A stretch of DNA of 64,000 nt from a virus (lineage: Duplodnaviria > Heunggongvirae > Uroviricota > Caudoviricetes). A program made the translations under genes and the position numbers. Positions within the stretch are counted from its first letter, which is position 1. Every line of letters starts with the position of its first letter. Below are positions 16,279-59,259 of this stretch, piece by piece. The stretch lies in IMG/VR virus record IMGVR_UViG_3300028805_000039, positions 127,852 through 191,851 of that record; one strand, given 5' to 3'. The notes beneath the pieces are model-generated. The model ran no database searches and was not told where the DNA came from. It saw nothing but the letters and a program-made list of their open reading frames with translations.

Positions 16279-16427
16279 GCCACGCCTTACCGCCCGGGCG
16301 CAAGATTGTTAAATAAATAACATTGAAAACCCTTCTTGACTTTTCCAAAATTTATGCTATACTATAATTGTTGATGCGGGAAAAGAAGTTAAACCCCATC
16401 ACAGAAAGGAATAAATATATGGAAAAA

Positions 16428-22407: not shown

Positions 22408-23108
22408 ATTACATGATGATTGATACTGAGACTACTAATAGTCTTGATGACCCTTTTGCCTATGATGTAGGTTTTGAAGTTTTTGACCGTGACGGCAATA
22501 CTATTGAAATTGCGTCTTTAACTAATAAGGATTTGTTCCTTGATAAAAATTTTATGTCCACTGCTTACTATGCTGAAAAAATCCCTAACTATTGGAAAGA
22601 GATTTGGGCAAAAGAGCGTGAACTTTTAACTTGGCGGGAAATCAAGTGGAGAGTGTTCGATGCTTGTAAGCGAAACGATTGTCAGATTGTAGCGGCCCAC
22701 AATGCTATGTTTGACAATCGGGCATTAAACTTAACCCAGCGTTATATTACTACCAGTCAGTACCGTTATTTTCTGCCGTATGGTGTGACTTGGTGGGACA
22801 CTTTGAAAATGGCTCGTGAAGTTCTCGGCAAAGATGAAACTTATGCACGATTTTGTGAATACTTTGGATATACTACCGTAAGGGGCAAGCCTCGCTTTAC
22901 CGCTGAGATTGTATATAAATACATTAGTGGGGATATAGATTTTGAGGAACGGCATACTGGCCTTGAAGATGTAAAGATAGAAAAAGATATTTTTCTTTAT
23001 TGTCTTGACCGCGCCCCCGACATAGATGGGCGGCTTTGGAAACCTAAGCCGGAGCCGCCCCGTAAAATGGAACCTTGGGAAATCGAATTACAAGAATTAC
23101 TTGCTTAA
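22404..23108 (+). CDS. DEDD-family 3'-5' exonuclease (second paralog)
   Basis: MMIDTETT, AAHNAMFD, HTGLEDVKIE motifs. Confidence 0.6.
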   Translation: MNYMMIDTETTNSLDDPFAYDVGFEVFDRDGNTIEIASLTNKDLFLDKNFMSTAYYAEKIPNYWKEIWAKERELLTWREIKWRVFDACKRNDCQIVAAHNAMFDNRALNLTQRYITTSQYRYFLPYGVTWWDTLKMAREVLGKDETYARFCEYFGYTTVRGKPRFTAEIVYKYISGDIDFEERHTGLEDVKIEKDIFLYCLDRAPDIDGRLWKPKPEPPRKMEPWEIELQELLA

Positions 23109-41277: not shown

Positions 41278-41485
41278 ATAAACTCTTAATTGATTTTTTT
41301 AAAAAAAAATTATATAATATATATGTAAGATAAAGAAAAGAAAAAAACGTCTTACAAAAGAAACAGACATACTTATTAAGAAAAAACGAAATTTAATTTG
41401 AAAATTTAAAAAAAATATTATATAATAAGTATGTAAGAAAGACAAAAATAAATAAAAAAATTAAAAAATGAAAGGTGAATGAATT

Positions 41486-41893
41486 ATGTCTGATTCTGTT
41501 GTTAAGGTTACTAAGCGTGAGCGGTATGAGGCTATTAAGACTCTTTGTAGTATGGCTGAGAATGTTGGAGATCTTGATATTGATGGAATTATCGCTTTTT
41601 GTGATAAGGAAATTGAGACTCTTGATGCTAGAGCGGAAAAGGCTAAAGAGCGTGCTGCTATTAAGCGTGCCGAGGGTGATGAACTTTTGGAGATTGTCTA
41701 TAATGCTCTTACTGATGAATTTGAAACTCGTGATGCCATTACTGAGCGCATTGGCAATGAGAATATTTCTGTTGCAAAGGTCACTTATCGTTTGACTTCT
41801 CTTGTTAAGGCTGGTCGAGCTGTAAAAGACGAGACAAATGTCACTGGGGCTGACGGAAAGAATCATCGAGTTTCAGTTTATAAGTTAGCATAA
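41486..41893 (+). CDS. family-X protein (paralog 4, in the late module)
   Basis: ...VTYRLTSLVKAGRAV...VYKLA C-terminus. Confidence 0.55.
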   Translation: MSDSVVKVTKRERYEAIKTLCSMAENVGDLDIDGIIAFCDKEIETLDARAEKAKERAAIKRAEGDELLEIVYNALTDEFETRDAITERIGNENISVAKVTYRLTSLVKAGRAVKDETNVTGADGKNHRVSVYKLA

Positions 41894-41895
41894 AA

Positions 41896-41940
41896 TAGTT
41901 AAAAATAAAAACCATCTAATTTTAGATGGTTTTTATTTTT
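41896..41940 (+). terminator. rho-independent terminator
   Basis: aaaaccatctaattttagatggttttt followed by a T run. Confidence 0.7.
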
Positions 41941-41996
41941 ATTGACATATTTAAAAAAAAATGGTAAAATAAAAAAAGAAAGAGGTGAAAATAAAT

Positions 41997-42785
41997 ATGC
42001 GTTTTTGTTTAAGTGGACGATAGACTAATGAATATTTAAAAAAAGCCAATGAACTTATGATAAATTATTTAGATCATAATTTTATTTATGATGCTGTTAA
42101 AATTAATCCAAATGCAATTATTACTTTAATAATTGATACAAATGATAATATTAATTGGGATATTTTATCTCAATATAAAATAATATGTAAATCTGGATTT
42201 AGAATTGCTAGTAATAATACTTCTATTTTATTAGACGCAAAAGAAAAAGGATATAAATTTTTCAATTTAATTCCAGCCAGATATGGATATCAATTAAATG
42301 CTTTAATAAATTTTGGAGTATGCGCTGTTCGAATAGGCGGTTAGTTAGCTCATGAAATGGATTTTTTAAGTAAAATTGATATTGAAAAAAGAATGATTGT
42401 CAATTCAACAGATTCATATTTAAATTTTAACCCTTTAATTGGTGCATGGATCCGTCCAGAAGATTTATCTTTATTAGAATCTATTGATGTTTGCGAATTT
42501 CAATACATCAATCAAAAATAGGAATAGGCTTTATATAGAATTTATGCAGAATAGAAAGAATGGCCTGGACGATTATCTGAATTAATTATTGGAATTAAAG
42601 ATAATGATATAATGAATAGAATGTTGCCTCCAGAATTTACCAAACAAAGACTAAATTGTAAATAGTCTTGTATGAATGGGGGAAGCTGTAAATATTGTGA
42701 GCATGTGTGCGATGCAGCAAAAATAGATTTCATAAAAAAATATAAAATTTTACAAGCAAAAAAAATTATTATGGAGAATAAAGTA
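41997..42785 (+). CDS. hypothetical protein of about 262 aa; recoded (6 in-frame TAG), ends at TGA
   Basis: ATG 41997 is in frame with track ORF 42057..42344 and continues through TAGs to gtaTGA at about 42783. Confidence 0.4.
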
Positions 42786-43153
42786 TGAGTAGTCCTTCAA
42801 CAGCTTTTCTTGGTTATGGTTTTATTATCAATAAATATGAAGATGCTCCTATGCCTAATCATTTAGGAGAAGATTGGGAGCCTAATCCAGAATGGGAAAA
42901 ATGGGCTGATGATTTTTGTGATAGTGAATTTTGTTGGCCTATTTATTCTTATGATGATGATGCACGATTTTTTGGTATTAAATTAACTGATAGCATTGAC
43001 CCAGGAGAATATGTAGAATTTGGAAATGATCTTCCTCATTTCGATAAAGAATGTATTCCTAAATGGAATAATTTTATGACAGAATTTGAAAAATTTTTTC
43101 CTAATTCTGATAAAAAACCGCAATATGTTTTTATAAATATATATTGGTGTTAA
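42785..43153 (+). CDS. hypothetical protein (122 aa)
   Basis: ORF track. Confidence 0.55.
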   Translation: MSSPSTAFLGYGFIINKYEDAPMPNHLGEDWEPNPEWEKWADDFCDSEFCWPIYSYDDDARFFGIKLTDSIDPGEYVEFGNDLPHFDKECIPKWNNFMTEFEKFFPNSDKKPQYVFINIYWC

Positions 43154-47586: not shown

Positions 47587-47662
47587 TGCCGTTCTAGCTC
47601 AATTGGTAGAGCCCGCGACTTATAATCGCGAGGTTCCGGGTTCAATCCCCGGGGGCGGCACC
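47587..47662 (+). tRNA. tRNA-Ile(TAT)
   Basis: acceptor gccgttc/gggcggc; anticodon stem cgcga/tcgcg with loop cttataa; T-arm ccgggttcaatccccgg; CCA. Confidence 0.7.
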
Positions 47663-47752
47663 ATTAAGAAAAAAATTTTTTAGGACAAAGAAAGAAAATG
47701 TATTAAAAATTTTTTTCTTTAAAAGTAAATACCAGAAGAAAGGATGAAAGAT

Positions 47753-47872
47753 ATGGCTAATTTTTTATCTAATGTAAAAAAGGCTCTTCTTATGTATGCG
47801 GTTAGCACTAATCCTACAATGCTACGTTATATGAGCCAAGATGAAATTAGAGATATTTATGACATTCGATAA
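47753..47872 (+). CDS. small hypothetical protein (39 aa)
   Basis: aaaggatgaaagat then ATG; terminator hairpin after it. Confidence 0.3.
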   Translation: MANFLSNVKKALLMYAVSTNPTMLRYMSQDEIRDIYDIR

Positions 47873-48007
47873 GAAGTAAAAATACTTCTTATCAAAGTTG
47901 GTTGGTATTTAATTTGAAAATTTTAAAAATAATTTGAAATTTATAAAAAAATATTATATAATATATATGTAAGATAAATAAAGACAGAAACAGCAATTTT
48001 AATTTAA

Positions 48008-48115
48008 AAATGTTATGATTTGAGGAATCCGGTGTCACGGGTTCAAGTCCCGTCAATAACAAGTGAAAATCTTGCTATTGTAGCTCAGTCGGTAGAGCAC
48101 GAAAAAACTTTTTAA
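48008..48115 (+). pseudogene. degenerate or split tRNA-like fragments (T-arm/acceptor-3' piece followed by a 5' acceptor/D-arm piece)
   Basis: cacgggttcaagtcccgtc as in tRNA-Asp at 50140, then gctattgtagctcagtcggtagagcac without a matching 3' half; preceded by the conserved cagcaattt leader. Confidence 0.3.
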
Positions 48116-48144
48116 ACTGTCTTGTTTTTTAATGGAGAAAAAAT

Positions 48145-48357
48145 ATGCCAAGAGTAAGAGATGATAAATATCATTGGACACCAGAAGCAGATGAATATAT
48201 TTCAATTATTAAACCTTATATTAGTAATATGATACAATTAGGTGAGCATATGGGGTTTGATGAAGCTCAAGTATTTTATCTTATCATGTCTGAATTAGAT
48301 GACGCACAATTAATAAATATATTGAAAAAGAAAGAAAATCAATATAAAAATAAATAA
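48145..48357 (+). CDS. hypothetical protein (70 aa)
   Basis: ORF track. Confidence 0.5.
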   Translation: MPRVRDDKYHWTPEADEYISIIKPYISNMIQLGEHMGFDEAQVFYLIMSELDDAQLINILKKKENQYKNK

Positions 48358-48360
48358 TAT

Positions 48361-48437
48361 GGCCCGTTCGCCCAATTGGTTAGAGCGCTTGACTGTTAAT
48401 CAAGAGGTTCTGGGTTCAAGTCCCAGGCGGGCCGCCA
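48361..48437 (+). tRNA. tRNA-Asn(GTT)
   Basis: acceptor ggcccgt/gcgggcc; anticodon stem cttga/tcaag with loop ctgttaa; T-arm ctgggttcaagtcccag; CCA. Confidence 0.8.
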
Positions 48438-48439
48438 TA

Positions 48440-49510
48440 AGAAATAATGGTAGTAGGCTTAGAAGTAGCCATCTTTAATGAGTAGTGATATGCCGTATGT
48501 GAGTATAGATAGTTTGTTAGTAAAGCTACTATGAATGGATAGAGAGAGTCAATTCCAAAGAAAACTAACCTTAAATTAGTCAGTTAAAAACGGGAACGCG
48601 GGGAGAAGCGGCTGTATATCAACCTGCGCTACGTGAAGCTATGGAGCTAATGAAGTTATGCTTGCAAGGACGGGGCCGACCTAAATGACCAATATACTTT
48701 TAGTGTAATAACACGCCATTATATTAGGTTGCCAGTTTACCAATACATTAAAAACTGATTTTATTAGGTTTTCAGTTTACCAATACATTAAAAAACTGGC
48801 CGGTAGTATAACCGTAAGCAAGGTGCAATACTTGCGGGAAACCGCAAAAGGGTGTCGTAGGTAACGACAGCAAGGCGAGTGCAAATCCACCCTAAAATTA
48901 AAAAATGGGTCAGGTCCTATCGCCCGATTAGGTAGGCGAGGAAAGTGAGGTAGGTTTTTATTCATAATGAATAATGTAAAATCCTTCGCCTTGTAAGCGT
49001 CCAAGTGAAATATATTGGCTACCTAATCTTTTTATCTATCTATCAAGAGTAGAAAAGATTGAGGCCGATTTAAATGCGGCGGTCGTATAAAATACCGCAT
49101 ACAACGAGACCTAACTTAGGATAAGTTATGGTGTTATTTATGATTTGCGCGCAGGTCATCTTAGTGTGTAAAGCCACATTAAATTGAAGGAATCCTTCGC
49201 CCCAGCTTAGGGGAGGAATATAAGCAAAAAGATTTGGCTCTTATTGCCAATTGTCAAAAGTATAAGTATTGTAGTATGCTACACGATAGGGAACCCTAAA
49301 ACACTCGTTAGGTGGGAAGGTGAATTGAGAGTGTAATATATAACTCTATGTGGTGCCCAACATGAAGGTGGCAATGTCGAGCTGACGGCTACAGTAAAGG
49401 GTGACGCCTATCAGTTAGCAGAATATGAAAATTGAGGAGCTATGATGCCTCCGGGGCCATTAGGCTGTCTGGCCACGAAACTCAAGGAAGTTATTTCCAC
49501 CAGTCTTTTT
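48440..49510 (+). ncRNA. GC-enriched non-coding island of about 1.07 kb (large structured RNA candidate) containing a 2 x 38-bp tandem repeat
   Basis: no ORFs with RBS; stems such as gcgggaaaccgc; tandem attaggtt(g/t)(c/t)cagtttaccaatacattaaaaa(a)ctg at 48719-48797. Confidence 0.3.
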
Positions 49511-49514
49511 ATAT

Positions 49515-49604
49515 GCACGAGTGGTGGAATGGTAGACACTGCAGTTTGAGGGACTGTTGCGAAATAATAGTAGCGTGCGGGTTCAAGTCCCGCCTCGTGT
49601 ACCA
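49515..49604 (+). tRNA. tRNA-Leu(GAG), class II
   Basis: acceptor gcacgag/ctcgtgt; anticodon stem gcagt/actgt with loop ttgaggg; long variable arm; T-arm gcgggttcaagtcccgc; CCA. Confidence 0.55.
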
Positions 49605-49677
49605 TAAGAGTTCAAGACATGGTCAGTACATGTTACACCGGTTATTAGTGTAATGGTAAGCACGGAACTCTTTATAT

Positions 49678-49761
49678 GTCGATGTGGTGGAATGGTAGAC
49701 ACGCGACACCTAGGATGTCGTGTCTGATGGCGTGCAGGTTCAAGTCCTGTCATCGACACCA
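49678..49761 (+). tRNA. tRNA-Leu(TAG), class II, with an unusual C33 (loop CCUAGGA)
   Basis: acceptor gtcgatg/catcgac; anticodon stem cgaca/tgtcg; long variable arm; T-loop ttcaagt; CCA. Confidence 0.6.
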
Positions 49762-49817
49762 GCACCTGGCAAGGTGGCAAAGTCAGCCCGTTAGACTTTA
49801 AATGGCGGGACACTTAT

Positions 49818-49902
49818 GCTGAAATGATGGAATGGTAGACATGTCACACTCAAAATGTGATGCCATCACGGCGTGTGGGTTCAAGTCCCACTTTCAGTAC
49901 CA
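49818..49902 (+). tRNA. tRNA-Leu(CAA), class II
   Basis: acceptor gctgaaa/tttcagt; anticodon stem tcaca/tgtga with loop ctcaaaa; long variable arm; CCA. Confidence 0.7.
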
Positions 49903-50139
49903 GGGCTTTATGCCTTTACGATACTACAACAATTATTTCAGTAATGTATTTACTATGGTGGCTTTGAAGATTTCCCATCTAATTACTTAAAAGTAATAAA
50001 CATAAATGAAATCTTCTCTTATTTGAAAATTTAAAAAAAATATTATATAATATATATGTAAGATAAATAAAGACACAAACAGCAATTTGTTATATAACTC
50101 TTGCCGTATTGAGGGAAAATATACGTGTCTTGATTATAT

Positions 50140-50215
50140 GGCTCCGTGATGCAGATGGTTACCATGACGGCCTGTCACGCCGTATACACGGGTTCAAGTC
50201 CCGTCGGAGTCGCCA
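50140..50215 (+). tRNA. tRNA-Asp(GTC)
   Basis: acceptor ggctccg/cggagtc; anticodon stem acggc/gccgt with loop ctgtcac; T-arm acgggttcaagtcccgt; CCA; preceded by a late promoter and the cagcaattt leader. Confidence 0.75.
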
Positions 50216-50219
50216 GCCA

Positions 50220-50570
50220 CTTACTTATGCTGGGATAAGTAAGAGGAAGAAAATATAATACCAGCCGGTTGGTTTTGAAATCCTCCCGTAATTGTAGATG
50301 GAGGGAACCCACCTAGGAAAAACACATCCTAAAGTGAACGCGAGTGGGTTACCGCGTTATCTCTAGCCACAGGTAGGAGTCCTGTGATTAAAACTCCTTA
50401 AATATAATATAGTGCTACGAAGTTATATAGAAATGCGCTGGCCGAAACCAGAAGGCAGTCATATAAATTAAAGAAGCAGTAGTAAATGGAATGAAATAAA
50501 CAGCTATATTATAAACGGAGTTATGAGTTGCAAATGCTTTATCCGTATTTAATACAAAGCGGTAGACTAT
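50220..50570 (+). ncRNA. structured non-coding spacer of about 350 nt
   Basis: hairpins cacttacttatgctgggataagtaag and cctcccgtaattgtagatggagggaa; no ORF. Confidence 0.25.
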
Positions 50571-50649
50571 GGGGCACGGGACTGCTTGGAGTGGTCGCCT
50601 CCCTTGCAAGGAGGATATCAGATGGGTTCGATGCCCATGTGTTCCACCA
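50571..50649 (+). tRNA. tRNA-Ala(TGC), with a non-canonical D-arm
   Basis: acceptor ggggcac/gtgttcc with G3.U70 (the Ala identity pair); anticodon stem cctcc/ggagg with loop cttgcaa; T-arm atgggttcgatgcccat; CCA. Confidence 0.55.
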
Positions 50650-50654
50650 AGAAA

Positions 50655-51255
50655 CTTATTGGTATGGGGTTTATGTGTTTGTCTCCGCCAATAAGAAAAG
50701 AAACACTTTACGCTATAGGTTCGGTTCAAAAATTCCTAGCAAATAAACAATAGAAATCTCGCATAGTGAAAGCGTTCTAATAAGATGTTCAGCGTATAAT
50801 TTATATGGGTAGGTAGCACTCGGTAGTGCGGGACGAAGTCCACCGCGGGAAGTCAGTTCAACTCTGGCCTTATCCACCATAGGTCTACTGTTTATTAGTT
50901 TTATACGACCTCATAAACTGAATAGAAACTATAATTATATGTAGTGGCGGAATAGGTAAACGCTGCGTCGTGAGGCTAAGCTAAAAACTTAATGATTGAT
51001 TGAGGGAAACCATTGAAAATCACAAATATAGCAGAGAATTTGTAAAAGTCAGAGCGAGAAGACTTAGTCATGATAGGTGCAAATCCTATTCTACATATAA
51101 AAATGGGTAGATTCCAGATACCTCGTAGCGGGAAAATCTGGCGTGGGATAGCGAATCCGAGAGTTCACGCTTACTTTAGCTATTTAGTTCGTAGGGATGA
51201 ACAATAGCGTATGCCTGACATATGTGTGCAAAGACTAGCTGGTCAATATGTCATT
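50655..51255 (+). ncRNA. GC-enriched non-coding island of about 0.6 kb containing a tRNA-like piece (gggtagg-ta-gcactcggtagtgc...)
   Basis: no ORF; D-arm-like and acceptor-like segments without a complete cloverleaf. Confidence 0.25.
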
Positions 51256-51260
51256 TATAT

Positions 51261-51347
51261 GGGTCGGTATGCCTAGCGGCGAGGGCAGGGGACTGTAAAT
51301 CCCTAACAATGGAAACACCGGTGGTTCGAGTCCACCCCGGCCCACCA
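51261..51347 (+). tRNA. tRNA-Tyr(GTA), class II
   Basis: acceptor gggtcgg/ccggccc; anticodon stem gggga/tccct with loop ctgtaaa; long variable arm; T-arm ggtggttcgagtccacc; CCA. Confidence 0.65.
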
Positions 51348-51439
51348 AATTATCTAGTTCAATGGTAGTGCATTAATAAATTTAGAACACTGGCAGGTCT
51401 AAGTCAGAGATTCTTGTTCGATTCAAGAGATAATTGCCA
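51348..51439 (+). tRNA. irregular tRNA whose anticodon loop contains U-CUA-A (8-nt loop AGGUCUAA); candidate amber-suppressor tRNA
   Basis: acceptor aattatc/gataatt (7 of 7 bp), discriminator G, CCA; T-arm tcttg-ttcgatt-caaga; anticodon stem ctggc/gtcag; CTA at 51399-51401; oversized or degenerate D region. Confidence 0.4.
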
Positions 51440-51463
51440 TAAGACATATACAGCAATTTAATT

Positions 51464-51536
51464 TCCAGAATAGTCAAATGGTTAAGACATTTTCCTACAA
51501 AGAAAAATAATGTGCGTTCAAATCGCACTTCCGGAC
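51464..51536 (+). tRNA. tRNA-Cys(ACA)-like with A34, no encoded CCA and one acceptor mismatch
   Basis: acceptor tccagaa/ttccgga; D-arm gtc-aaatggttaa-gac; anticodon stem ttttc/gaaaa with loop ctacaaa; T-arm gtgcgttcaaatcgcac; preceded by the cagcaattt leader. Confidence 0.45.
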
Positions 51537-51572
51537 AAAAATATGTCTTGAAATTTAAATGAGGTTAAATAT

Positions 51573-52094
51573 ATGAATCCTTTAAATGTATTTAATAATC
51601 AATATTACAGTTGGAAATATCCAGAATGTTGGCATAAAAATATTCGTATGTTTTTTAGAAGTATTAAATATGCTTATCAACGAATAACAAAAGGTTTCGC
51701 TTATTGCGATACTTGGGATTTAGATGATTATTATACTCATCTTTTTGTTGATAGTCTTAAAATGTATTCAGAACATATGAATGGTTGGCCGCAAAGTAAA
51801 GAGTTTCCAGAATTTGAAGATTATAAAAAGTATATTGATAAAATAATTTATCTTTTTGATCAATCTATTGAAGGCCATGAAGATATTAAGAATAAATATG
51901 CGGAAGAATATGAAGCTAAAATTCTTAATAAGCCAGATTTTTTGGAAAATATAAATAAAGAAAGAAAACCAGAAGAAAAAGCGTTAATAGATAAATATTT
52001 TAAACGCGAAGATGAACTTTATCATTACCGTAAAGCTTGCCGAAATGAAGCATTAGATATGATGAAACATATTTATGACAGCTTATGGTGGTAA
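51573..52094 (+). CDS. hypothetical protein (173 aa)
   Basis: ORF track; RBS tgaggt. Confidence 0.55.
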   Translation: MNPLNVFNNQYYSWKYPECWHKNIRMFFRSIKYAYQRITKGFAYCDTWDLDDYYTHLFVDSLKMYSEHMNGWPQSKEFPEFEDYKKYIDKIIYLFDQSIEGHEDIKNKYAEEYEAKILNKPDFLENINKERKPEEKALIDKYFKREDELYHYRKACRNEALDMMKHIYDSLWW

Positions 52095-52099
52095 TTGTT

Positions 52100-53160
52100 T
52101 AGTTTAAGATACCTTACAGCAAAAAATGTAATAAAAAAATATGTGGGTGGTTTGGTATCTTGTTTGACAATTCAAAAAAAATTTGATATAATATATTTAG
52201 ACAGTTAGACAGCAATATAATTTAAATAACAAGTTTTATTCAAATATAAAAAGACATGTTTTATTCTCCTTATTTGATATAAAAGAGATTTGATTTTATT
52301 GTGATTCTAATTTCATCAAATCTGCCAGTTATGGAATTATAAAGAAAAGGAATTAACTGTCTAGTTTATTTAAAATTTAAATTATATATAATAAAGACAC
52401 ATGCAGCAATTGATTTACAAAAGGTTGAAATTGTAGGCTGTATACCCACGGTGAAATGGTTCGAATCCATTAAATATTAAAGTGTCTTGTTATTATTAAG
52501 TCTTAAAATATAAATACAAGTTTTGATAACTCAGTGCAGACTATAAGCGACTTATAGGCTGAGAAATACCGAAGTGAGGCTCGGCACGGAACGAAACAAG
52601 GATACTTGTGGATAGTGGACCGCACTTTATATCGTGAGATATAAAGCGAACCCATGCGGGGAAAGGAAAGGTATTGTGCTAAAGTTATCGCAATTTAAAA
52701 TACCCGAGGGCGGGCAGAGTAATAGAAAGCTTTGTTGATAAGACAAAGCCGAATCCAGAAAACCGCGACCGGTGGCACGGCGTGAGAGTCTGGAAAAGCC
52801 AAACAATCTGTTGAATGTAGTTGAATAGGAGAAATCCTAGTATAACGCCTAACCAGGGTGCGAGTAGGGGAAATCTACAAAGGCTCAAATCTTAAAGACT
52901 TGAAGATATTATATTATTGATTGGTAAATATAATTAACAATACAATTTCTGAAAGTCCCCTGAAAGTTGTGGGTAAGCAATCCCACCAAGACGAAAGTTA
53001 GCTGTAAGCTAATGTCATAGGAAGCGTCATATCGACGGGTATGAGCTCAGACCTATGGTAGCTTGTGATTGAAAAAAATTGAAGGTAATTAGTAGTAGGG
53101 GGAAGCCCCATCAAAAAATCTGTATTTATATTTTAGGACTTAAAGTTCTTATTAAGAGAA
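52100..53160 (+). ncRNA. non-coding island of about 1 kb: an AT-rich promoter zone followed by a GC-enriched structured core (52500-53100)
   Basis: no ORFs; an isolated T-arm-like atggttcgaatccat at about 52460; stems such as cccgagggcgggc, ccgcgaccggtggcacggcg and ctacaaaggctc. Confidence 0.3.
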
Positions 53161-53168
53161 AGAAAGAG

Positions 53169-53351
53169 ATGAATATGAGAATTTTATGGATTATTCCTAT
53201 TATGGGAATATTTCTTTATCTTGCTTTATTCATCGTTAATTTAAAAGTTTAGTATGAAATATATAAATTAGAAAAACATCTAAAAAAAACAGAGCAAGAT
53301 AAACCAATGTATGAAATATGGTTAGAAGAAATTGAATCTTTAAATAAATAA
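53169..53351 (+). CDS. small membrane peptide (60 aa); recoded (in-frame TAG at 53250)
   Basis: MNMRILWIIPIMGIFLYLALFIVNLKV-TAG-YEIYKLEKHLKKTEQDKPMYEIWLEEIESLNK then TAA. Confidence 0.45.
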
Positions 53352-53388
53352 CTATATTTCATCAAAAGGAGAAAAAGGTGTTTTATAT

Positions 53389-53464
53389 GCGAGCGTAATT
53401 CAGTTGGTGGAATGCACGACTGATAATCGTGTCGTCACTGGTTCAAGTCCAGTCGTTCGCACCA
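53389..53464 (+). tRNA. tRNA-Ile(GAT)
   Basis: acceptor gcgagcg/cgttcgc; anticodon stem cacga/tcgtg with loop ctgataa; T-arm ctggttcaagtccag; CCA. Confidence 0.8.
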
Positions 53465-53467
53465 TAT

Positions 53468-53543
53468 GCCGCGGTAGCTCAGTTGGTAGAGCGGAGGCCT
53501 GAAGAGCCTCGCGTCGGGGGTTCGAAGCCCTCCTGCGGCACCA
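53468..53543 (+). tRNA. tRNA-Phe(GAA)
   Basis: acceptor gccgcgg/ctgcggc; anticodon stem gaggc/gcctc with loop ctgaaga; T-arm gggggttcgaagccctc; CCA. Confidence 0.8.
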
Positions 53544-53871
53544 AGGAGTAATATCTCCGTAGAGCCGGGAGCCAGGCTCGATAATGAACAGGCTAACTGG
53601 TTGCCAAACCAATGAAAACTATGGTAGTCAATACTGCTCAGGACTAATGAGATTAGAAGCGGCGGTAGGTCTCCCAGTGCCGAAAGTGAAATTTACTAGT
53701 GATTTCCTGGATTTTTATATGGGTGAGTATCCAAATAGTAAAGGAACCGGACCGATAACTGAATCTAGTTTTAGGTTTGAGAACAGCAGCACGGACGTAA
53801 AATCCGGCGCTCAATGAGCTTCGCAGGTGCAAATCCTGTCCTCGCCCACCAAAAGAAAGGAATGGTAATTA

Positions 53872-54068
53872 TGACTTTTGAACTTAAAGATAAAGATTTA
53901 GAAAGTATAACTGGTGGTTCAATTCTTCCTTATCTTGTTGAAGCTGGAGATACTTTAGCAATGATTGCAAAGAAATTTAACTGTACTGTTGAAGAGCTTC
54001 AAAGATGGAATAAAATTGAAAATGTTGATAAGATTGACGTAGGTCAAAAATTGATAATTAAATTTTAA
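53872..54068 (+). CDS. LysM-domain protein (65 aa)
   Basis: YLVEAGDTLAMIAKKFNCTVEELQRWNKI...IDVGQKLII matches the LysM consensus; RBS aaaggaatgg. Confidence 0.65.
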
Positions 54069-54069
54069 A

Positions 54070-54480
54070 AAAAAATTGGCTTTGGTAAGAGGACCCTGTA
54101 AGTAGTTGATAGTGGAACAATAACCAATTTTTATATTACCAACAAGCTACCTGTTGAGACGACGAGGATTGGAGCAACGTCGTTATAAAAATAAATAAAG
54201 ACCCCAATATATTTGGCGGGAATAGAACAAACCGCACGGAGAGGGAAGAGTTTGTAGGTCGCTGCCTTTCGCGTAGCAATAGAGAGGACACGGTAATGAC
54301 TAGTTCGGAAATCCCTTGAAAGAACGAAAACCTACATTAAATAGAATAGTAGGGAATTGCTTTGTGGATTACTGCAAACGCATAAAAATAGCGTGACCCT
54401 ACACGCGGTGCCCCGGTTTATTGTATCGCACAGAGACACGTATAATTTATTCACCTGATGGAATATTAATTTACTGGGGC
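54070..54480 (+). ncRNA. non-coding GC-enriched island of about 0.4 kb
   Basis: no ORF; stems ggcgggaatagaacaaaccgc and gaggacacggtaatgac. Confidence 0.25.
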
Positions 54481-54557
54481 ATTTAATTTCTTATTTGAAA
54501 ATTTTAAAAAAATATTATATAATATTTATAGAAAATAAGAAATGAGGTTTTTTAAAT

Positions 54558-54809
54558 ATGTTTGGTTATCATGATAGTAATAGATGTGCTTTTGACCTTT
54601 GGGCACCTGTTCAGTATGATGATACTGCAGTACAAAACCGAGCTTTTTCTTCTTATTGTTATCATAGCCAAGAGATAGAAGATGCTATTATTGCTATTGG
54701 AAATGGTATTGATTCTCTTGATTTTGATATGGAAATGACTGATGATGATATGCGATATATTGAAGAAGAAGTAAAAAAGAGATATGGTATGACAATTCAT
54801 GTATCTTAA
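54558..54809 (+). CDS. acidic hypothetical protein (83 aa)
   Basis: ORF track; late promoter upstream. Confidence 0.55.
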   Translation: MFGYHDSNRCAFDLWAPVQYDDTAVQNRAFSSYCYHSQEIEDAIIAIGNGIDSLDFDMEMTDDDMRYIEEEVKKRYGMTIHVS

Positions 54810-54882
54810 ATAAAAGATTTCTTATTTGAAAATTTTAAAAAAATATTATATAATATTTATAGAAAAGTGAGGGGAATAAAAA

Positions 54883-55016
54883 ATGAATGATAAATTTGAT
54901 GATTTTGATATTGGCCCTCAAAGTGATGAAAATCATTTAACAGAAATTTGGGAAGAATATCAAAGAAGTATTGAATAGACTTCTGAATGGGTTAAACAGT
55001 ATTAGAAAAATAATTA
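54883..55016 (+). CDS. small acidic protein; recoded (2 in-frame TAG)
   Basis: MNDKFDDFDIGPQSDENHLTEIWEEYQRSIE-TAG-TSEWVKQY-TAG-KNN then TAA. Confidence 0.4.
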
Positions 55017-55019
55017 ATT

Positions 55020-55097
55020 GGCCTGTTCGTCTAAATAGGCAAGGATATTAGACTCTCAATCTGATGATGCTAGGTTCAAATCCTGCACAGGTCACCA
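55020..55097 (+). tRNA. tRNA-Glu(CTC)
   Basis: acceptor ggcctgt/acaggtc; anticodon stem ttaga/tctga with loop ctctcaa; T-loop ttcaaat; CCA. Confidence 0.55.
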
Positions 55098-55099
55098 GC

Positions 55100-55500
55100 A
55101 GGTAATGGCTACTCCTGGGTAAAAAAAGTTGCTAATGGGGTAAAATAAGTTGCCTTACCGGAAAAAAGACTTAAAGGGAACATTCGTCGCACAATGGTAA
55201 AGCCCATAATACGGTGATTATAGAAACTATTCCGTATATATAAGGTTTCGCTTAACCTATTGGAATAAGCTTGTATGGTTCTAATTGAATGAAATGCGAG
55301 TTCAAGACTCGTCTCGCCGTTTGGCGGGTGGTGTAAGAGGAAACAAACACACAGAAGAAATTAATTTTGGTGAAGAAAAATTATTTTGTAGTGAGATAAA
55401 ATTTCTGTAATTCCAAAGAGAACCCTGTAAAAATGATTCACTACCATTTTTACAGTAATGCCGCAAGAGCTGGTAGTGCGGAATATAAATTAATCAGCTT
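55100..55500 (+). ncRNA. non-coding structured spacer of about 0.4 kb
   Basis: no ORF with RBS; T-arm-like gcgagttcaagactcgt without a full cloverleaf. Confidence 0.2.
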
Positions 55501-55502
55501 AT

Positions 55503-55595
55503 ATGGTCTAGTAGACGAACTGGTAAAGTCCCCGCCCTTTCAAGGCGGTGTGCCCAGCGAAAGCGGGTTATGGGTTCAAACCCCATCTAGATCAC
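55503..55595 (+). tRNA. class-II (long variable arm) tRNA with anticodon UUC; identity ambiguous
   Basis: acceptor ggtctag/ctagatc; anticodon stem ccgcc/ggcgg with loop ctttcaa; 21-nt variable arm; T-arm atgggttcaaaccccat; CCA. Confidence 0.5.
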
Positions 55596-55596
55596 C

Positions 55597-55678
55597 ATTG
55601 CGGGGTAGAGGAGTCTGGTCGTCCTCGCCTGCCTCATAAGCAGGAAATCGTTGGTTCAAATCCAACCCCACGCTACCA
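55597..55678 (+). tRNA. tRNA-Met/Ile2-type (anticodon CAT); the acceptor stem has a bulge
   Basis: D-arm gagg-agtctggtcgt-cctc; anticodon stem cctgc/gcagg with loop ctcataa; T-arm gttggttcaaatccaac. Confidence 0.5.
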
Positions 55679-55829
55679 TGTCGTCCAAGCGACAGTAAAT
55701 ATTTTGGTTGGTTAATCGCGAACCTTTAATCAAAATCGCAAAGGAGATAACAGATGATGAAACGTAATAGTAATGTCAAAAACTCCAGCGAGGATAGCCC
55801 AATTGGCTGTTTGAGGTCCTAAGCAAGAC

Positions 55830-55920
55830 CTTAAAAGGCTTAATATCGCAGAGCGAAGAAGTCTTCCATCCTGGCTCATAACCAGGACTCCGCAGGAGCG
55901 TTACCTGCCTCTGCTCCCAA
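55830..55920 (+). ncRNA. tRNA-like element with a perfect CAU anticodon arm but non-canonical D and T arms; C1xU72 mismatch
   Basis: cctgg-ctcataa-ccagg; 3' end ctctgct-c-cca pairs with cgcagag. Confidence 0.3.
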
Positions 55921-55922
55921 AT

Positions 55923-55998
55923 AGCAGGGAGGTTGTTGGTTTACCGGCGAAGTCTCATAAACCTCGTTACGTGAGTTCAATTCTCACCCTTGCTACCA
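55923..55998 (+). tRNA. tRNA with anticodon CAT (third CAU species; Met, fMet or Ile2)
   Basis: acceptor agcaggg/ccttgct; anticodon stem gaagt/acctc (one mismatch) with loop ctcataa; T-arm gtgagttcaattctcac; CCA. Confidence 0.5.
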
Positions 55999-55999
55999 T

Positions 56000-56470
56000 A
56001 GGTTGACACTACCCTCAAAAGTGCCAGTGTGCGGAAAGGATGGATTCCCACTAACCTACCCTAGTTTCGTAGAGGGCTTAGTCATTTAGTAGCACGCTTT
56101 AATAAAAAAGACAACGAAAGCAAGTGGAAAAATAATAATCTTAACCAAATATCCAGAACGTATTTGAAGTCGTTTCTAAGTAGCCCGTCTGGAGGCGTAA
56201 GATTTTAAAGACCCGCCTATAGGGAACCGTATAACTGATAGCGATAGCTGAAAGGCTTGGCTTCGGGGGTGAATATGGCTAGCGGGGAGAAGCCGATATA
56301 TGAAGTTTTTAATACTAGTTATATGAGAATAATTATATATTGGCGCACTACCTTTTCTCATATATTTAAATGTATGGGAAACAAAAGAAGATTTACTATG
56401 AGGTTTCTTTTACATCCCAAGCCAAAGTATTTTGTTTGGTTTTGTTTTTCTTACCTCATATTTTTTTATA
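56000..56470 (+). ncRNA. non-coding spacer of about 0.47 kb (GC-enriched 5' part)
   Basis: only spurious short ORFs without RBS. Confidence 0.2.
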
Positions 56471-56475
56471 TGCTT

Positions 56476-56571
56476 GGTGCTCTAAGCCTAATCGGTAAGG
56501 CAGATGCCTGCTAAGCATCGAGTAAGTCGGTTTTTCCGGCTGTCCCAGTTCAAGTCTGGGGAGCATCGCCA
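56476..56571 (+). tRNA. tRNA-Ser(GCT), class II
   Basis: acceptor ggtgctc/gagcatc; anticodon stem gatgc/gcatc with loop ctgctaa; long variable arm; T-arm cccagttcaagtctggg; CCA. Confidence 0.8.
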
Positions 56572-56717
56572 TTCAAGTAGCAAGGTTTAAGCGAAAAGGG
56601 AAACGGAAAATCCCCCTTGATTTAATCAGGGCTAAATCCGAGATAACCGTGAGCCTTAATCGTAGAAAGGCATAAAGAGATACCAATAGAGATAAAATGT
56701 AATTTATCTTTTATTAT

Positions 56718-56807
56718 GGCAGCGTACTGTAATGGTAACAGCCCTGACTTGAAATCAGAGAGTAGGTCGCGAGGTCTATGCGGGTTCGAATCCTGCCGCT
56801 GTCGCCA
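56718..56807 (+). tRNA. tRNA-Ser(TGA), class II
   Basis: acceptor ggcagcg/cgctgtc; anticodon loop cttgaaa; long variable arm; T-arm gcgggttcgaatcctgc; CCA. Confidence 0.7.
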
Positions 56808-56811
56808 ATAT

Positions 56812-56894
56812 GGCCGGCTAAGCCTAATGGTAAGGCAGTGGTCTAGAAAACCGCCAGTAAGGGTGATGAGCCCTGTCTCCGTTCAAGTCGGAGG
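56812..56894 (+). tRNA. tRNA-Ser paralog with anticodon loop CUAGAAA (anticodon AGA, A34)
   Basis: D-arm almost identical to Ser(GCT); anticodon stem gtggt/accgc; long variable arm; T-arm ctccgttcaagtcggag; CCA. Confidence 0.55.
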
Positions 56895-56941
56895 CCGGTC
56901 GCCAATTTATTTTAAAAATAAGTAATAAGGAAAATGGAAAA

Positions 56942-57136
56942 ATGAAACATTCTGATAAAGAAAAAGAAATGCACGAAGCTTATGAACGGTATATTAATCA
57001 AATTGCTTATAATTATGCTGATGGAGAAGGATATTATGATTATGGTGGCATAGGAATGAAGCAAAATGCTAGGCGTGCACATCCTTTTGAAGATTATTGG
57101 CCTGGTAAAGAAGAATTTAGCCATTGGAAAGATTAA
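56942..57136 (+). CDS. hypothetical protein (64 aa)
   Basis: ORF track; RBS aaggaaaatggaaaa. Confidence 0.5.
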   Translation: MKHSDKEKEMHEAYERYINQIAYNYADGEGYYDYGGIGMKQNARRAHPFEDYWPGKEEFSHWKD

Positions 57137-57154
57137 AAAATTTAATTAAAAATA

Positions 57155-57496
57155 ATGGATGAACATGTTATTCCTCTTGTTAATTATTTTAATACACATG
57201 GATTAAAAACAGAAATGTCTTGTGAAGGGCATAATAAAACAAATATGTCAATGTTTTGGATTAGTTTTACTAATTCAGTTCAAGAACAAGATATTATAAA
57301 TTTCCAAAAGAAACATATTAATAAATATGGAAATTTTTGTTCTTGCGGTAGATTTGCTCAAAGATTATATGTTTGTGCTGTTACTAATGAAAAATATTGG
57401 TGTTATTTTGCAGCAACAATAGAAGCAGCAAATGAAGATTTAAAAAGGTGGCAACAAGATGATTCAAAATATTGTAATAGGGAAACCGCTGGTTGA
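57155..57496 (+). CDS. Cys/His-containing hypothetical protein (113 aa)
   Basis: ORF track. Confidence 0.5.
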   Translation: MDEHVIPLVNYFNTHGLKTEMSCEGHNKTNMSMFWISFTNSVQEQDIINFQKKHINKYGNFCSCGRFAQRLYVCAVTNEKYWCYFAATIEAANEDLKRWQQDDSKYCNRETAG

Positions 57497-57740
57497 GCCT
57501 TGGAGTTTAATTTCTTATAATAAAGAAGATTTTGAAAAAAACGATAAAAAATATACAATGTTTACTGAAGAAAGATTTCTTCCTACTCTTTTGGTAAATG
57601 CTGGTATTGTTAAATCCAAGAGTGAAATAAAAAGAAATAAACCTGAATTGTGGATTACGCTTGATACATTAGATTGTCTTTGGGTCAAATGGGGCAAAAA
57701 TAAAATCTACATTATTGTAGGAGAAAAATATGAATTTTAA
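57459..57740 (+). CDS. hypothetical protein (93 aa)
   Basis: ORF track. Confidence 0.5.
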   Translation: MIQNIVIGKPLVEPWSLISYNKEDFEKNDKKYTMFTEERFLPTLLVNAGIVKSKSEIKRNKPELWITLDTLDCLWVKWGKNKIYIIVGEKYEF

Positions 57741-57939
57741 TGATAAATATAATGGTGATAAGAACGCTGCATTGCGGGATGGATTGCTAATTAGCAAAGA
57801 AATTGGCCTTTGTGCTTGCGGGAAACCTACAAGATATATTGATATTTATTCCGAAAGTTATTTTTGTTCAGAAGAATGTTATAATAAATTTTATGATGAA
57901 ATGAATGAATGGGTAAATAAAAACGATGAAATATATTGA
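57730..57939 (+). CDS. zinc-ribbon small protein (CACGKPTRYIDIYSESYFCSEEC)
   Basis: ORF track. Confidence 0.5.
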   Translation: MNFNDKYNGDKNAALRDGLLISKEIGLCACGKPTRYIDIYSESYFCSEECYNKFYDEMNEWVNKNDEIY

Positions 57940-58133
57940 TATATATTAGAATTTACGACCTTTTGAACCCAAAGACGAAATAAATAATATTATTTGTGTA
58001 TCAAAATTTCAACCTTGTTGTGTATGCGGACATCCTACTTGCTATGTTGAAATTAATTATGAAGGTTATTTTTGTAGTGAAGAATGTTTGCGGCAATTTG
58101 AGGATAGTATTGACAATTTAAAAAATTTTTAAT
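57933..58133 (+). CDS. paralog of 57730 (CVCGHPTCYVEINYEGYFCSEEC); recoded (1 in-frame TAG)
   Basis: MKYIDIY-TAG-NLRPFEPKDEINNIICVSKFQPCCVCGH... Confidence 0.4.
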
Positions 58134-58174
58134 ATAATATATATGTAAAAAATAAAAAAATGGAGGTTATCCTA

Positions 58175-58798
58175 ATGGTTGGTAATTGGAATGTAAATAT
58201 TAATACTAATGGTATGCCTTAGAAGATTGCTTCTGCATTTGCAGGACTTGCTGATACTCTTATTGGGGCAGAGTATGATTTTGTTGCTTATCTCGGTTCT
58301 CAGGTTGTAAATGGCACAAATCATGCAGTTCTTGCTAAACAAACTGTTCTTTCTGGCAAGGATACAAAGAATCTTGTTGTTCTTATTTTTAATGAGAAAC
58401 CTAATGATACAGTAGCAACTCTTGTAAGTATTGAACGTGTCGTTGAAGGTGGAGAACCTTTGGGCGGCACTCAGGTAAATGTCGAGTTTGAGATTCCTGC
58501 TGAAGCTCAAAAGGCTTTTGATGATGCCTTCGATGGTCGTCTTGGTGCAAAGTGGACTCCTATGGCTCTTCTTGCTACAAAAGTAACTAAGGGTACTAAT
58601 TATGTATATCTTGTTGAAGAGACTCCTGTTGTTTGTGACCCAGTTAAAACTGCTATGCTTGTTACTGTAAATGGAATGACCCATGATGTTGCTTTCGCAG
58701 ATTTGCTTGCTAGTAAGCATGAAATGTCTCTTGGCTATGCCTTTACTTGGTTGAAGAAACCTGGCTTTGGTACTCCTCTTGGCGAGTGGCCCTAATTT
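58175..58798 (+). CDS. hypothetical protein of about 207 aa with an internal duplication; recoded (TAG at codon 15)
   Basis: ATG 58175 (RBS ggaggttatcctaATG) is in frame with track ORF 58460..58795; MVGNWNVNINTNGMP-TAG-KIASAF...; the two halves are similar (NGTNHAVLAKQ.. / KGTNYVYLVEE..). Confidence 0.5.
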
Positions 58799-58829
58799 AA
58801 AATAAAGTGAGGATTTATTCCTCACATAT

Positions 58830-58904
58830 GCTCCTATAGTATAAAGGTTATTACAAGGCACTTGTAATGCTTAGATCTCCGTTCGACTCGGAGTAGGAGC
58901 TCCA
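58830..58904 (+). tRNA. tRNA-Thr(TGT)
   Basis: acceptor gctccta/taggagc; anticodon stem aggca/tgctt with loop cttgtaa; T-arm ctccgttcgactcggag; CCA. Confidence 0.75.
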
Positions 58905-59023
58905 TTAAAAAAGCGATGAAGTGTCTATGACAAAGAGCCTTCAAAAAAATTATACTAGTCCCGCCACTTTGTCTGTATAAGGGAGATAGGTAATAAAAAG
59001 GTTTAGACGTTTTCCTTTTAAAT

Positions 59024-59099
59024 GCCAACTTAGCTCAGTTGGTAGAGCAATACACTAGTAATGTATAGGTCGTGAGTTCGAGTCTCACAGTTGGCTCCA
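59024..59099 (+). tRNA. tRNA-Thr(AGT), A34
   Basis: clean cloverleaf: acceptor gccaact/agttggc; anticodon stem ataca/tgtat with loop ctagtaa; T-arm gtgagttcgagtctcac; CCA. Confidence 0.7.
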
Positions 59100-59103
59100 A
59101 CAT

Positions 59104-59179
59104 GCGGGTATGGTGTTAGTGGTTAGCATATGTGCTTGCCAAGCATAAGGGGAGGGTTCAAGTCCCTCTACTCGCTCCA
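59104..59179 (+). tRNA. tRNA-Gly(GCC)
   Basis: acceptor gcgggta/tactcgc; anticodon stem tgtgc/gcata with loop ttgccaa; T-arm gagggttcaagtccctc; CCA. Confidence 0.75.
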
Positions 59180-59185
59180 TAAAAT

Positions 59186-59259
59186 GCGAATATAGTTTAA
59201 TGGTAGAACGCTACGTTCCCATCGTGGAAGTGAGATTTCGATTATCTTTATTCGCTCCA
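59186..59259 (+). tRNA. tRNA-Gly(CCC)
   Basis: acceptor gcgaata/tattcgc; anticodon stem ctacg/cgtgg with loop ttcccat; T-arm gagatttcgattatctt; CCA. Confidence 0.65.

Follow-up and report, generated by a model that had tools for sequence, protein, structure and literature searches.

Conserved tRNA genes with wobble adenosine in a phage tRNA array as candidate unmodified readers of U-ending codons

The stretch of DNA analysed here, referred to as the window, comprises 64,000 nucleotides of a phage genome (Caudoviricetes; IMG/VR record IMGVR_UViG_3300028805_000039, positions 127,852 to 191,851). It carries a large tRNA array in which three genes place adenosine at wobble position 34 of the anticodon (A34): tRNA(ACA), tRNA-Ser(AGA), and tRNA-Thr(AGU) (Table 1). 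ARAGORN detects 29 tRNA genes in the window, every one on the plus strand, and most of them form a main array in which small open reading frames (ORFs) and a ROOL RNA are interspersed. tRNAs with ANN anticodons other than ACG account for 695 of 246,393 bacterial tRNAs, or 0.28% (Raval et al. 2026, bioRxiv 10.64898/2026.05.15.725136). At that rate, 0.08 such genes are expected among 29 tRNAs, and the probability of three or more is approximately 1e-4 (both figures calculated here from the 0.28%). The three A34 genes are confirmed as real and as more than chance would give.

ARAGORN draws a standard cloverleaf for each of the three genes, and tRNA(ACA) and tRNA-Thr(AGU) both exceed the gathering score of the Rfam tRNA model RF00005, which is 29 bits. 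These two genes have the canonical elongator layout of a 7-bp acceptor stem, a D arm, a 5-bp anticodon stem, and a T arm with GTTC, apart from one acceptor-stem mismatch in tRNA(ACA). The minimum-free-energy (MFE) fold of tRNA-Thr(AGU) is a complete cloverleaf, and tRNA-Ser(AGA) has a perfect class II cloverleaf as its MFE fold (-38 kcal/mol, z = -2.7). With GUGGU/ACCGC, AUACA/UGUAU, and UUUUC/GAAAA as their anticodon stems, the genes have 7-nt loops with U33, which fixes A at position 34. A sequence-only reading of this DNA had named a fold that shifts the anticodon by one position as the finding that would overturn its claim; the MFE folds and ARAGORN cloverleaves exclude such a register, and the anticodon stem of the L023 lineage of tRNA(ACA), AUAGC/GCUAU, permits no other. 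The same reading had called the three genes genuine phage tRNAs, which is borne out by ARAGORN, the MFE folds, Rfam for two of the three genes, and a phage context established by PHROG and huge-phage matches. Its coordinates are exact for the ACA and Thr genes, while the end it gave for the Ser gene, 56894, falls 10 nt short of 56904.

Bacterial tRNA-Ser is characterized by a long, stem-bearing variable arm and by G73, and its anticodon is not an identity element for SerRS. Both features are present in tRNA-Ser(AGA): its variable arm of 22 nt contains a 4-5 bp stem, and its G73 precedes CCA. It shares its D arm, T loop, and variable-arm start with the tRNA-Ser(GCU) of the window, as the sequence-only reading had noted in calling the two paralogues, and it is derived from the Ser(GCU) backbone. 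The identity set of E. coli ThrRS consists of G1-C72, C2-G71, G35, and U36. All four of these bacterial tRNA-Thr features are found in tRNA-Thr(AGU) (GCCAACU...AGUUGGC, anticodon AGU), together with U73 and an encoded CCA.

Conservation searches left position 34 free. The Thr anticodon-arm pattern finds AGT in three viral contigs and TGT in a fourth, and tRNA-Thr(AGU), which recurs in five viral contigs, retains A34 in L001, L002, and L003 and in the syntenic relative L006/L009. Among the Thr genes compared, six stem pairs covary with both sides changed, and pairing is 100%. The syntenic relative encodes a radical-SAM protein 81% identical to that of the window and keeps the gene order of the window: Ser(GCU), Ser(UGA), Ser(AGA), Thr(UGU), Thr(AGU), and Gly(GCC). 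Its Ser(AGA) copy contains a single difference, U28 to C, which converts a G.U pair to G-C. A second tRNA-Ser(AGA), in L056, has an unrelated backbone and adjoins an opal-suppressor tRNA.

Strict anticodon-arm patterns for ACA and AGA give no matches in IMG/VR, and D-arm-anchored patterns took their place. Of the loci that the D-arm pattern recovers with any base allowed at position 34, seven from metagenomes carry ACA, one metagenome locus and one viral locus carry GCA, and another carries CCA. A looser pattern adds a third ACA lineage, L057, which lies beside an amber-suppressor tRNA, as well as one GCA and one UCA gene. Among the seven distinct ACA sequences that represent the three lineages, both sides have changed in 12 of 20 stem pairs and 95% of cells remain paired, a degree of covariation reached by 0 of 500 shuffles, and the loop CUACAAA is invariant. 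Relatives L021 and L022 carry a tRNA-Leu(AAG) on another backbone in the array slot that tRNA-Leu(GAG) occupies in the window; the A34 boxes of the phage clade comprise Arg(ACG), Leu(AAG), Thr(AGU), and Ser(AGA). Copies identical to those of the window occur in independent assemblies. These comparisons indicate that A34 is not a recent accident and suggest that the three genes are selectively maintained.

The 173-aa ORF adjoining tRNA(ACA) yields no relatives when used as a query. BLAST of the 8-kb array and of tRNA-Thr(AGU) against GenBank phages gives only generic tRNA similarity to unrelated phages, and BLAST of tRNA(ACA) against the same phages gives no match at all. A contig labelled as a giant-virus metagenome-assembled genome (MAG), L004, carries a tRNA-Ser(ACU), which places A34 in the two-codon AGY box. 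It adjoins a tRNA-Thr(UGU) that has its anticodon arm in common with the Thr(AGU) of the window and is 83% identical overall. L023 and L025 encode a tmRNA with the tag peptide ANNYAYAA, and a tmRNA-bearing contig carries 28 tRNAs that include ACA and GCA Cys tRNAs and Arg(ACG).

tRNA(ACA) is the sole gene of the 29 without an encoded CCA and the sole one that starts with U1 (U1-A72). Its discriminator is C73 in the window and L057 lineages and A73 in the L023 lineage. CysRS recognizes the anticodon GCA and the discriminator U73, of which U73 is the main element. tRNA(ACA) retains C35 and A36 but has A34 in place of G34 and lacks U73, and it thereby departs from the tRNA-Cys identity set. The conventional Cys decoder of the phage is the tRNA-Cys(GCA) of the window, a gene kept in L006 with compensatory acceptor-stem changes.

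Nevertheless, the nearest neighbours of tRNA(ACA) without an ACA anticodon are Cys(GCA) genes among 431 tRNAs compared, and this kinship and the phage's need for Cys at UGU argue for Cys. TGT is the codon at each of the nine Cys positions in the radical-SAM ORF, those of its CxxxCxxC cluster motif among them, and UGU must therefore mean Cys. The A13.A22 combination with A46 in tRNA(ACA) probably resembles E. coli tRNA-Cys. The gene belongs to one backbone family, defined by the D arm GTCAAATGGTTAAGAC and the loop CUNCAAA, which carries all four bases at position 34 across different phages: ACA, GCA (Cys), CCA (Trp, L026), and UCA (opal suppressor, L056). Because these four anticodons occur on the same backbone, one scaffold serves the whole UGN box.

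The Thr and Ser(UCN) boxes each contain a U34 and A34 pair without G34, which matches the strategy of Oenococcus oeni. The U34 partners are tRNA-Thr(UGU) and tRNA-Ser(UGA), the latter 4 nt upstream of tRNA-Ser(AGA), and neither Thr(GGU) nor Ser(GGA) occurs among 352 phage-side tRNAs, including at least 37 of this phage. T occupies codon position 3 in 48% of codons overall and in 53% in the 30-64 kb part of the window. Within their families, the shares are 63% for ACT (Thr), 69% for TCT (UCN), and 70% for TGT (Cys), while C-ending codons remain in use (ACC 15%, TCC 11%). In a both-strand ORF count, the share of U at codon position 3 (U3) is 57% for Thr and Ser versus 41% for Ala, Val, Pro, and Gly (chi-square 51, P = 9e-13). 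This excess is absent from control phage loci of approximately 100 kb without A34 tRNAs, which are Ser-pattern matches and probably crAss-like. A link between the U3 excess and the A34 tRNAs is suggestive only.

The interpretation that these data support with moderate confidence is that the A34 tRNAs are functional and maintained and that they probably act as unmodified Watson-Crick readers of U within a near-complete phage tRNA set. A34 would stay unmodified and pair with U at codon position 3, and the three tRNAs would be devoted to reading ACU, UCU, and UGU with high specificity; these codons dominate their families in an AT-rich, U3-rich phage. In the Cys box, tRNA(ACA) would be added beside the conventional tRNA-Cys(GCA). 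In another assembly of the same phage, the array runs on beyond the end of the window and adds Arg(ACG), His, Arg(CCU), Trp, Lys(CUU), Val, Pro, and Gln, which brings the total to at least 37 tRNAs that cover all 20 amino acids; the phage-encoded decoding set is nearly complete. The genes, folds, conservation, partners, and codon bias are direct observations, to which this interpretation adds expression, the amino acid charged, the lack of inosine, and the selective reason.

The modification state is judged mainly from the anticodon loops and from data on other tRNAs. TadA is known to recognize YUACGAA in E. coli and YUAMGRA in S. pyogenes (PMC11472039). Positions 35 and 36 of the Ser and Thr loops depart from both motifs, as does position 36 of the ACA loop; the Arg(ACG) loop of the phage (CUACGGA) and the Leu(AAG) loop of its relatives (CUAAGGA) fit YUAMGRA. 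Schmitt et al. (2024) introduced AGA, AGU, and ACA into an orthogonal tRNA from M. jannaschii with a loop that matches tRNA-Arg2, and found no inosine in E. coli (PMC11066159). In that system, reading of U- versus C-ending codons was 19.7% versus 1.4% for AGA, 10.7% versus 1.4% for AGU, and 3.6% versus below detection for ACA (PMC11066159). When present as genomic alleles in E. coli, Ser(AGA) and Thr(AGU) were also detected in unmodified form (Raval et al. 2026, bioRxiv 10.64898/2026.05.15.725136). No cytidine/adenosine-deaminase zinc motif is present in the relatives' loci or in the sequence examined, approximately 80 kb of a phage genome that is probably much larger. The sequence-only reading had left a choice between tolerated, unmodified A34 and editing; by analogy, unmodified A34 is favoured and editing is the less favoured of the two.

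Several points weigh against this interpretation. tRNA-Ser(AGA) falls below the Rfam threshold, with only a local 18.7-bit match to model positions 10-42 (D and anticodon arms). tRNA(ACA) has an A4.C69 mismatch in its acceptor stem, with two mismatches in L019; its anticodon stem is weak and A-U, and its folding z-score of -1.5 is unremarkable. U73 is found in 9 of 10 phage Cys(GCA) genes and in none of the three ACA lineages (Fisher-type P ~0.014, calculated here), and because U73 is missing, Cys charging of tRNA(ACA) is doubtful or needs a non-standard enzyme. The U3 comparison is built on crude ORF calls, and L007, in which no Ser(AGA) is visible, has a milder form of the same trend. Cys is also the least U-biased of the two-codon families, so codon supply alone fails to explain A34 for Cys but not for Phe, Ile, and Asn. 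A deaminase or aminoacyl-tRNA synthetase gene could sit in the genome beyond the 80 kb.

The A34 set of O. oeni comprises Arg-ACG, Leu-AAG, Thr-AGU, and Ser-AGA, of which Thr and Ser keep unmodified A34 and Arg and Leu acquire inosine (I34) (PMC8072771; PMC8007984). The phage clade resembles O. oeni and the Leuconostocaceae in using the same four boxes, with A34 replacing G34 and the U34 tRNA kept, but its genes are phage-borne and include an ACA tRNA outside the reported O. oeni set. In an ARAGORN-checked search of 185,579 species genomes, tRNA-Thr(AGU) with the phage-type D arm occurs in 28 species, all Lactobacillales or Mollicutes, and the Thr(AGU) genes of Mesoplasma, Mycoplasma, and Spiroplasma were recovered with the same D-arm pattern. 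The earlier statement that bacterial A34 is normally confined to Arg(ACG) is thus too strong. Bacterial Thr(AGU) and the phage gene match in D arm and variable loop; however, the phage gene is 66-78% identical to bacterial Thr(AGU) and has U73, whereas the bacterial genes have A73. Because the exact Thr(AGU) anticodon arm of the phage has no match in the same genomes, it assigns no host. Mollicutes provide a genomically encoded bacterial Thr(AGU) whose A34 is unmodified and which, as described, reads every ACN codon as part of a minimal tRNA set. Given its separate Thr(UGU) and a codon usage that leans to ACU, the phage fits the role of a U3 specialist better than Mollicutes-type decoding.

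Eukaryotic ADAT2/3 substrates include Ser(AGA) and Thr(AGU), and A34 likewise replaces G34 except for Gly (PMC8007984). In contrast to these substrates, the phage genes are of bacterial type, with encoded CCA, a class II tRNA-Tyr in the array, and Shine-Dalgarno (SD) motifs in the genome, and no ADAT-like gene is seen in the sequence covered. The engineered ANN tRNAs of E. coli carry the same three anticodons and are unedited and U3-specific in the orthogonal tRNA (Schmitt et al. 2024), and Ser(AGA) and Thr(AGU) are tolerated in E. coli (Raval et al. 2026, bioRxiv 10.64898/2026.05.15.725136). The phage anticodons differ in being natural and conserved, and a virus need not preserve host fitness. 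T4-like, T5-like, and huge-phage arrays share with this one a large, all-amino-acid cluster biased to phage codon usage (PMC7162821). Phage tRNA sets have been stated to lack the same ANN anticodons as bacteria (Ehrlich et al. 2021, PMC8007984; Raval et al. 2026, bioRxiv 10.64898/2026.05.15.725136), whereas A34 anticodons are present in this array and its relatives.

A34 might instead be converted to I34 by a broadened host TadA or a phage ADAT-like deaminase, with I34 reading U, C, and A and U34 reading A and G. Editing would fit the observation that the A34 boxes of the clade (Arg, Leu, Thr, and Ser) are all eukaryotic ADAT substrates while Gly keeps G34 likewise (PMC8007984), and the remaining ACC and TCC codons still need a reader. 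Besides the Arg and Leu loops that fit the S. pyogenes motif, the tRNA(ACA) loop agrees with YUACGAA at 6 of 7 positions, and I34, which resembles G, might restore CysRS recognition at position 34. tRNA-modification genes have been reported in huge phages (PMC7162821). Editing is nonetheless considered unlikely: the Ser and Thr loops miss both TadA motifs, the same three anticodons are unedited in E. coli (PMC11066159), Thr and Ser A34 are unedited in O. oeni (PMC8072771), and the deaminase motif is absent from the sequence covered. An edited ICA anticodon would also read UGA, yet UGA is a common terminator, ending 17 of 67 long ORFs. A sense role for TGA, which would fit such reading, finds no support, as an in-frame TGA signal is lacking.

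tRNA(ACA) might also serve a purpose other than Cys decoding, by carrying another amino acid, by acting as a decoy, regulator, or primer, or by being edited to read UGA in stop-recoded phages. The missing U73, the lack of an encoded CCA, and the unique U1 are all compatible with this idea, as are the Trp(CCA) and opal-suppressor members of its backbone family and the presence of suppressor tRNAs alongside ACA tRNAs in L057 and L056-type phages. Up to 15 aminoacyl-tRNA synthetases are encoded by huge phages themselves (PMC7162821), and a phage-encoded synthetase that charges tRNA(ACA) is conceivable. The idea is held to be quite improbable, as UGU specifies essential Cys in phage proteins that another amino acid would damage, the nearest neighbours of the gene are Cys(GCA) genes, and an in-frame TGA signal is lacking.

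A more speculative proposal draws on the lack of U73, the kinship with Trp(CCA) and UCA tRNAs, and the occurrence in stop-codon-recoded phages. It regards tRNA(ACA) as a selected private decoding device, with its own synthetase or edited to ICA, that controls how the UGN box (Cys, stop, and Trp) is read, and its probability is put as low as that of the non-Cys roles. No aminoacyl-tRNA synthetase or tRNA-modification enzyme is found among approximately 27 ORFs scanned with Pfam, NCBIfam, and PHROG. Overexpressed Cys(ACA) harms E. coli (Raval et al. 2026, bioRxiv 10.64898/2026.05.15.725136), and this toxicity may matter little to a lytic virus.

A34 in place of G34, or the replacement of isoacceptors, could hide the Thr, Ser, and Cys decoders from a host anticodon nuclease or from tRNA depletion and keep phage translation going once host tRNAs are cut; such evasion might be the main selective reason. 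An escape of phage tRNAs from tRNA-targeting defences through changed anticodon loops has been proposed (PMC10264068), and the phage owns a full private tRNA set, has both G34 and A34 Cys decoders, and encodes a MazE-antitoxin-like ORF. Neither a nuclease nor a target or cleavage site is identified, and the A34 set copies a native bacterial pattern that needs no defence argument. Defence evasion is therefore given little credence, although it is compatible with unmodified U-readers and does not compete with them exclusively. An artefact, in the form of a mis-folded prediction, a decaying pseudogene, or a eukaryotic virus with ordinary A34 tRNAs, could be read into the sub-threshold Rfam score of tRNA-Ser(AGA), the acceptor mismatch of tRNA(ACA), the major-vault-protein-like ORF, and the close Thr tRNA relative in the giant-virus-labelled L004, and it is very improbable and largely refuted by compensatory stem evolution with invariant anticodon loops, by synteny and identical copies in independent assemblies, and by bacterial hallmarks (28 of 29 tRNA genes with encoded CCA, class II tRNA-Tyr, ROOL RNA, SD motifs, PHROG matches, and the tmRNA of a relative). 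Encoded CCA, class II tRNA-Tyr, ROOL RNA, SD use, and the tmRNA in a relative are the grounds for rejecting origin from a eukaryotic virus.

The window has a G+C content of 35%, and PHROG matches among its ORFs place it in a phage. SD motifs precede 37 of 62 ORFs and 5 of 62 control positions. Together with encoded CCA and the class II tRNA-Tyr (87 nt), this indicates that the host is an SD-using bacterium. SD use, the Firmicute-type Arg loop CUACGGA, the ROOL RNA, the O. oeni-like A34 set, and the 28 species with similar Thr(AGU) point to a host in the Bacillota. The best matches of the vault-like protein, in huge phages, and a Ser backbone common to crAss-like phages would speak for the Bacteroidota, and the largest huge phages have been attributed to Bacteroidetes (PMC7162821). 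The vault-like protein contains shoulder and repeat domains of the Major Vault Protein family (Pfam, 6.7e-19 and 1.3e-8) and is 40% identical to ORFs of the huge phages LR756500, LR756501, and LR756503 (462-735 kb). Such a protein is unusual for a phage.

The phage genome plausibly recodes TAG, as the sequence-only reading had supposed. In-frame TAG codons number six, three, and two in three plus-strand ORFs (Table 1), and TAG terminates just 4 of 67 long ORFs. TAG read-through ORFs span 38632-42788 on the plus strand, and others lie on the minus strand around 26-30 kb. No tRNA(CUA) is present in the window or in approximately 17 kb of flanks (L058 and L060), so the amber suppressor must lie elsewhere. 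The three A34 loops do begin with CUA, to which a connection with TAG recoding had been attached. This feature is trivial: CU, with which an anticodon loop usually starts, opens 24 of the window's 29 loops, and CUA merely restates A34 (C32-U33-A34). The supposed connection finds no support, since CUA occupies positions 32-34 and not 34-36 in all three tRNAs.

The remaining features of the array include the uncommon anticodons Ile(UAU), Glu(CUC), and Gly(CCC). Class II shape in bacteria is normally limited to Leu, Ser, and Tyr tRNAs; the 93-nt tRNA-Glu(UUC) of the array has a long, stem-forming variable arm like that of tRNA-Cys(GCA). Upstream of the ROOL RNA is a perfect sigma-70 consensus that includes an extended -10 TG. 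Another perfect consensus precedes the Thr(UGU)/Thr(AGU)/Gly cluster by approximately 700 nt and is a consensus match only; the total count of promoter-like sites does not rise above shuffled expectation. The first 30 kb of the window has a G+C content of 0.37-0.47, compared with 0.26-0.32 at 34-46 kb. Window positions 1-30000 are crowded with very short genes, and long-ORF coverage is low under every code tested. This part also encodes two paralogous exonuclease-like ORFs and a PcfJ-like ORF. Beyond the 3′ end of the window, an nSTAND3/AAA ATPase gene and an N6-methyltransferase/Eco57I-like gene lie amid the continuing tRNA array.

Table 1. Features of the window and of related loci (window coordinates unless a locus is given)
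Feature	Position	Strand	Details
tRNA(ACA), Cys by anticodon only	51464..51536	+	ARAGORN; Rfam 55.9 bits; loop CUACAAA
tRNA-Ser(AGA)	56812..56904	+	ARAGORN, MFE fold; class II, G73, encoded CCA; loop CUAGAAA
tRNA-Thr(AGU)	59024..59099	+	ARAGORN; Rfam 72.3 bits; clean cloverleaf; loop CUAGUAA
tRNA-Ser(GCU)	56476..56571	+	source backbone of Ser(AGA)
tRNA-Ser(UGA)	56718..56807	+	U34 partner of Ser(AGA)
tRNA-Thr(UGU)	58830..58904	+	U34 partner of Thr(AGU)
tRNA-Cys(GCA)	62714..62803	+	U73, CCA, 90 nt, long variable arm, Rfam 53.7 bits
tRNA-Leu(GAG)	49515..49604	+	slot occupied by Leu(AAG) in L021, L022
Main tRNA array	47588..62803	+	25 of 29 window tRNAs
ROOL RNA, full-length	52506-53129	+	Rfam RF03087, 292 bits; within tRNA array
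Candidate promoter	58110..58138	+	perfect sigma-70 consensus TTGACA, 17 nt, TATAAT
Sigma-70 consensus, extended -10 TG	52164-52192		upstream of ROOL RNA
tRNA-Ile(UAU)	47588-47663	+	
tRNA-Glu(CUC)	55020-55097	+	
tRNA-Glu(UUC)	55505-55597	+	
tRNA-Gly(CCC)	59186-59259	+	
Vault-like ORF	30884-33226	+	780 aa
ORF with in-frame TAG	38632-39564	+	2 TAG
ORF with in-frame TAG	39619-41277	+	3 TAG
ORF with in-frame TAG	41973-42788	+	6 TAG
MazE/AbrB-type antitoxin-like ORF	8074-8355	+	Pfam on L060
PcfJ-like ORF	13016-14128	+	
Exonuclease-like ORFs	16368-17129, 22404-23108	+	phrog_20187; DNA polymerase exonuclease subunit phrog_192
UGN-box backbone members	L056 5078-5151; L026 163-234; L017, L008, L055		
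tRNA-Ser(AGA), syntenic relative	L009 1755-1847		
tRNA-Ser(AGA), second backbone	L056 3812-3901		
tRNA-Cys(GCA), relative	L006 9887-9976		
tRNA-Leu(AAG)	L021 7856-7940; L022 1752-1836		
tRNA-Ser(ACU)	L004 1321-1405		
tmRNA	L023 2936-3226; L025 2710-3000		
nSTAND3/AAA ATPase	L058 9180-10286		
N6-methyltransferase/Eco57I-like gene	L058 12719-14071		

The occurrence and conservation of A34 anticodons across several phage lineages is new. Because A34 tRNAs recur in these lineages, the array and its relatives contradict the published claim that phages lack ANN anticodons. The novel part is the conserved ACA tRNA in the two-codon Cys box, which belongs to a class described as universally absent. The scarcity of wobble adenine in cells has been an open question since Crick and was revisited experimentally in 2024-2026. 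The phage clade forms a natural counterexample that conserves Thr(AGU), Ser(AGA), and Leu(AAG) as well as the Cys-box ACA. It provides natural sequences for asking whether unmodified A34 is a usable U-specific decoder and what limits A34 in cells but not in viruses, and it bears on how a tRNA without canonical Cys identity is charged. It also suggests that the routine anticodon tables of metagenomic phages are likely to hold unreported exceptions.

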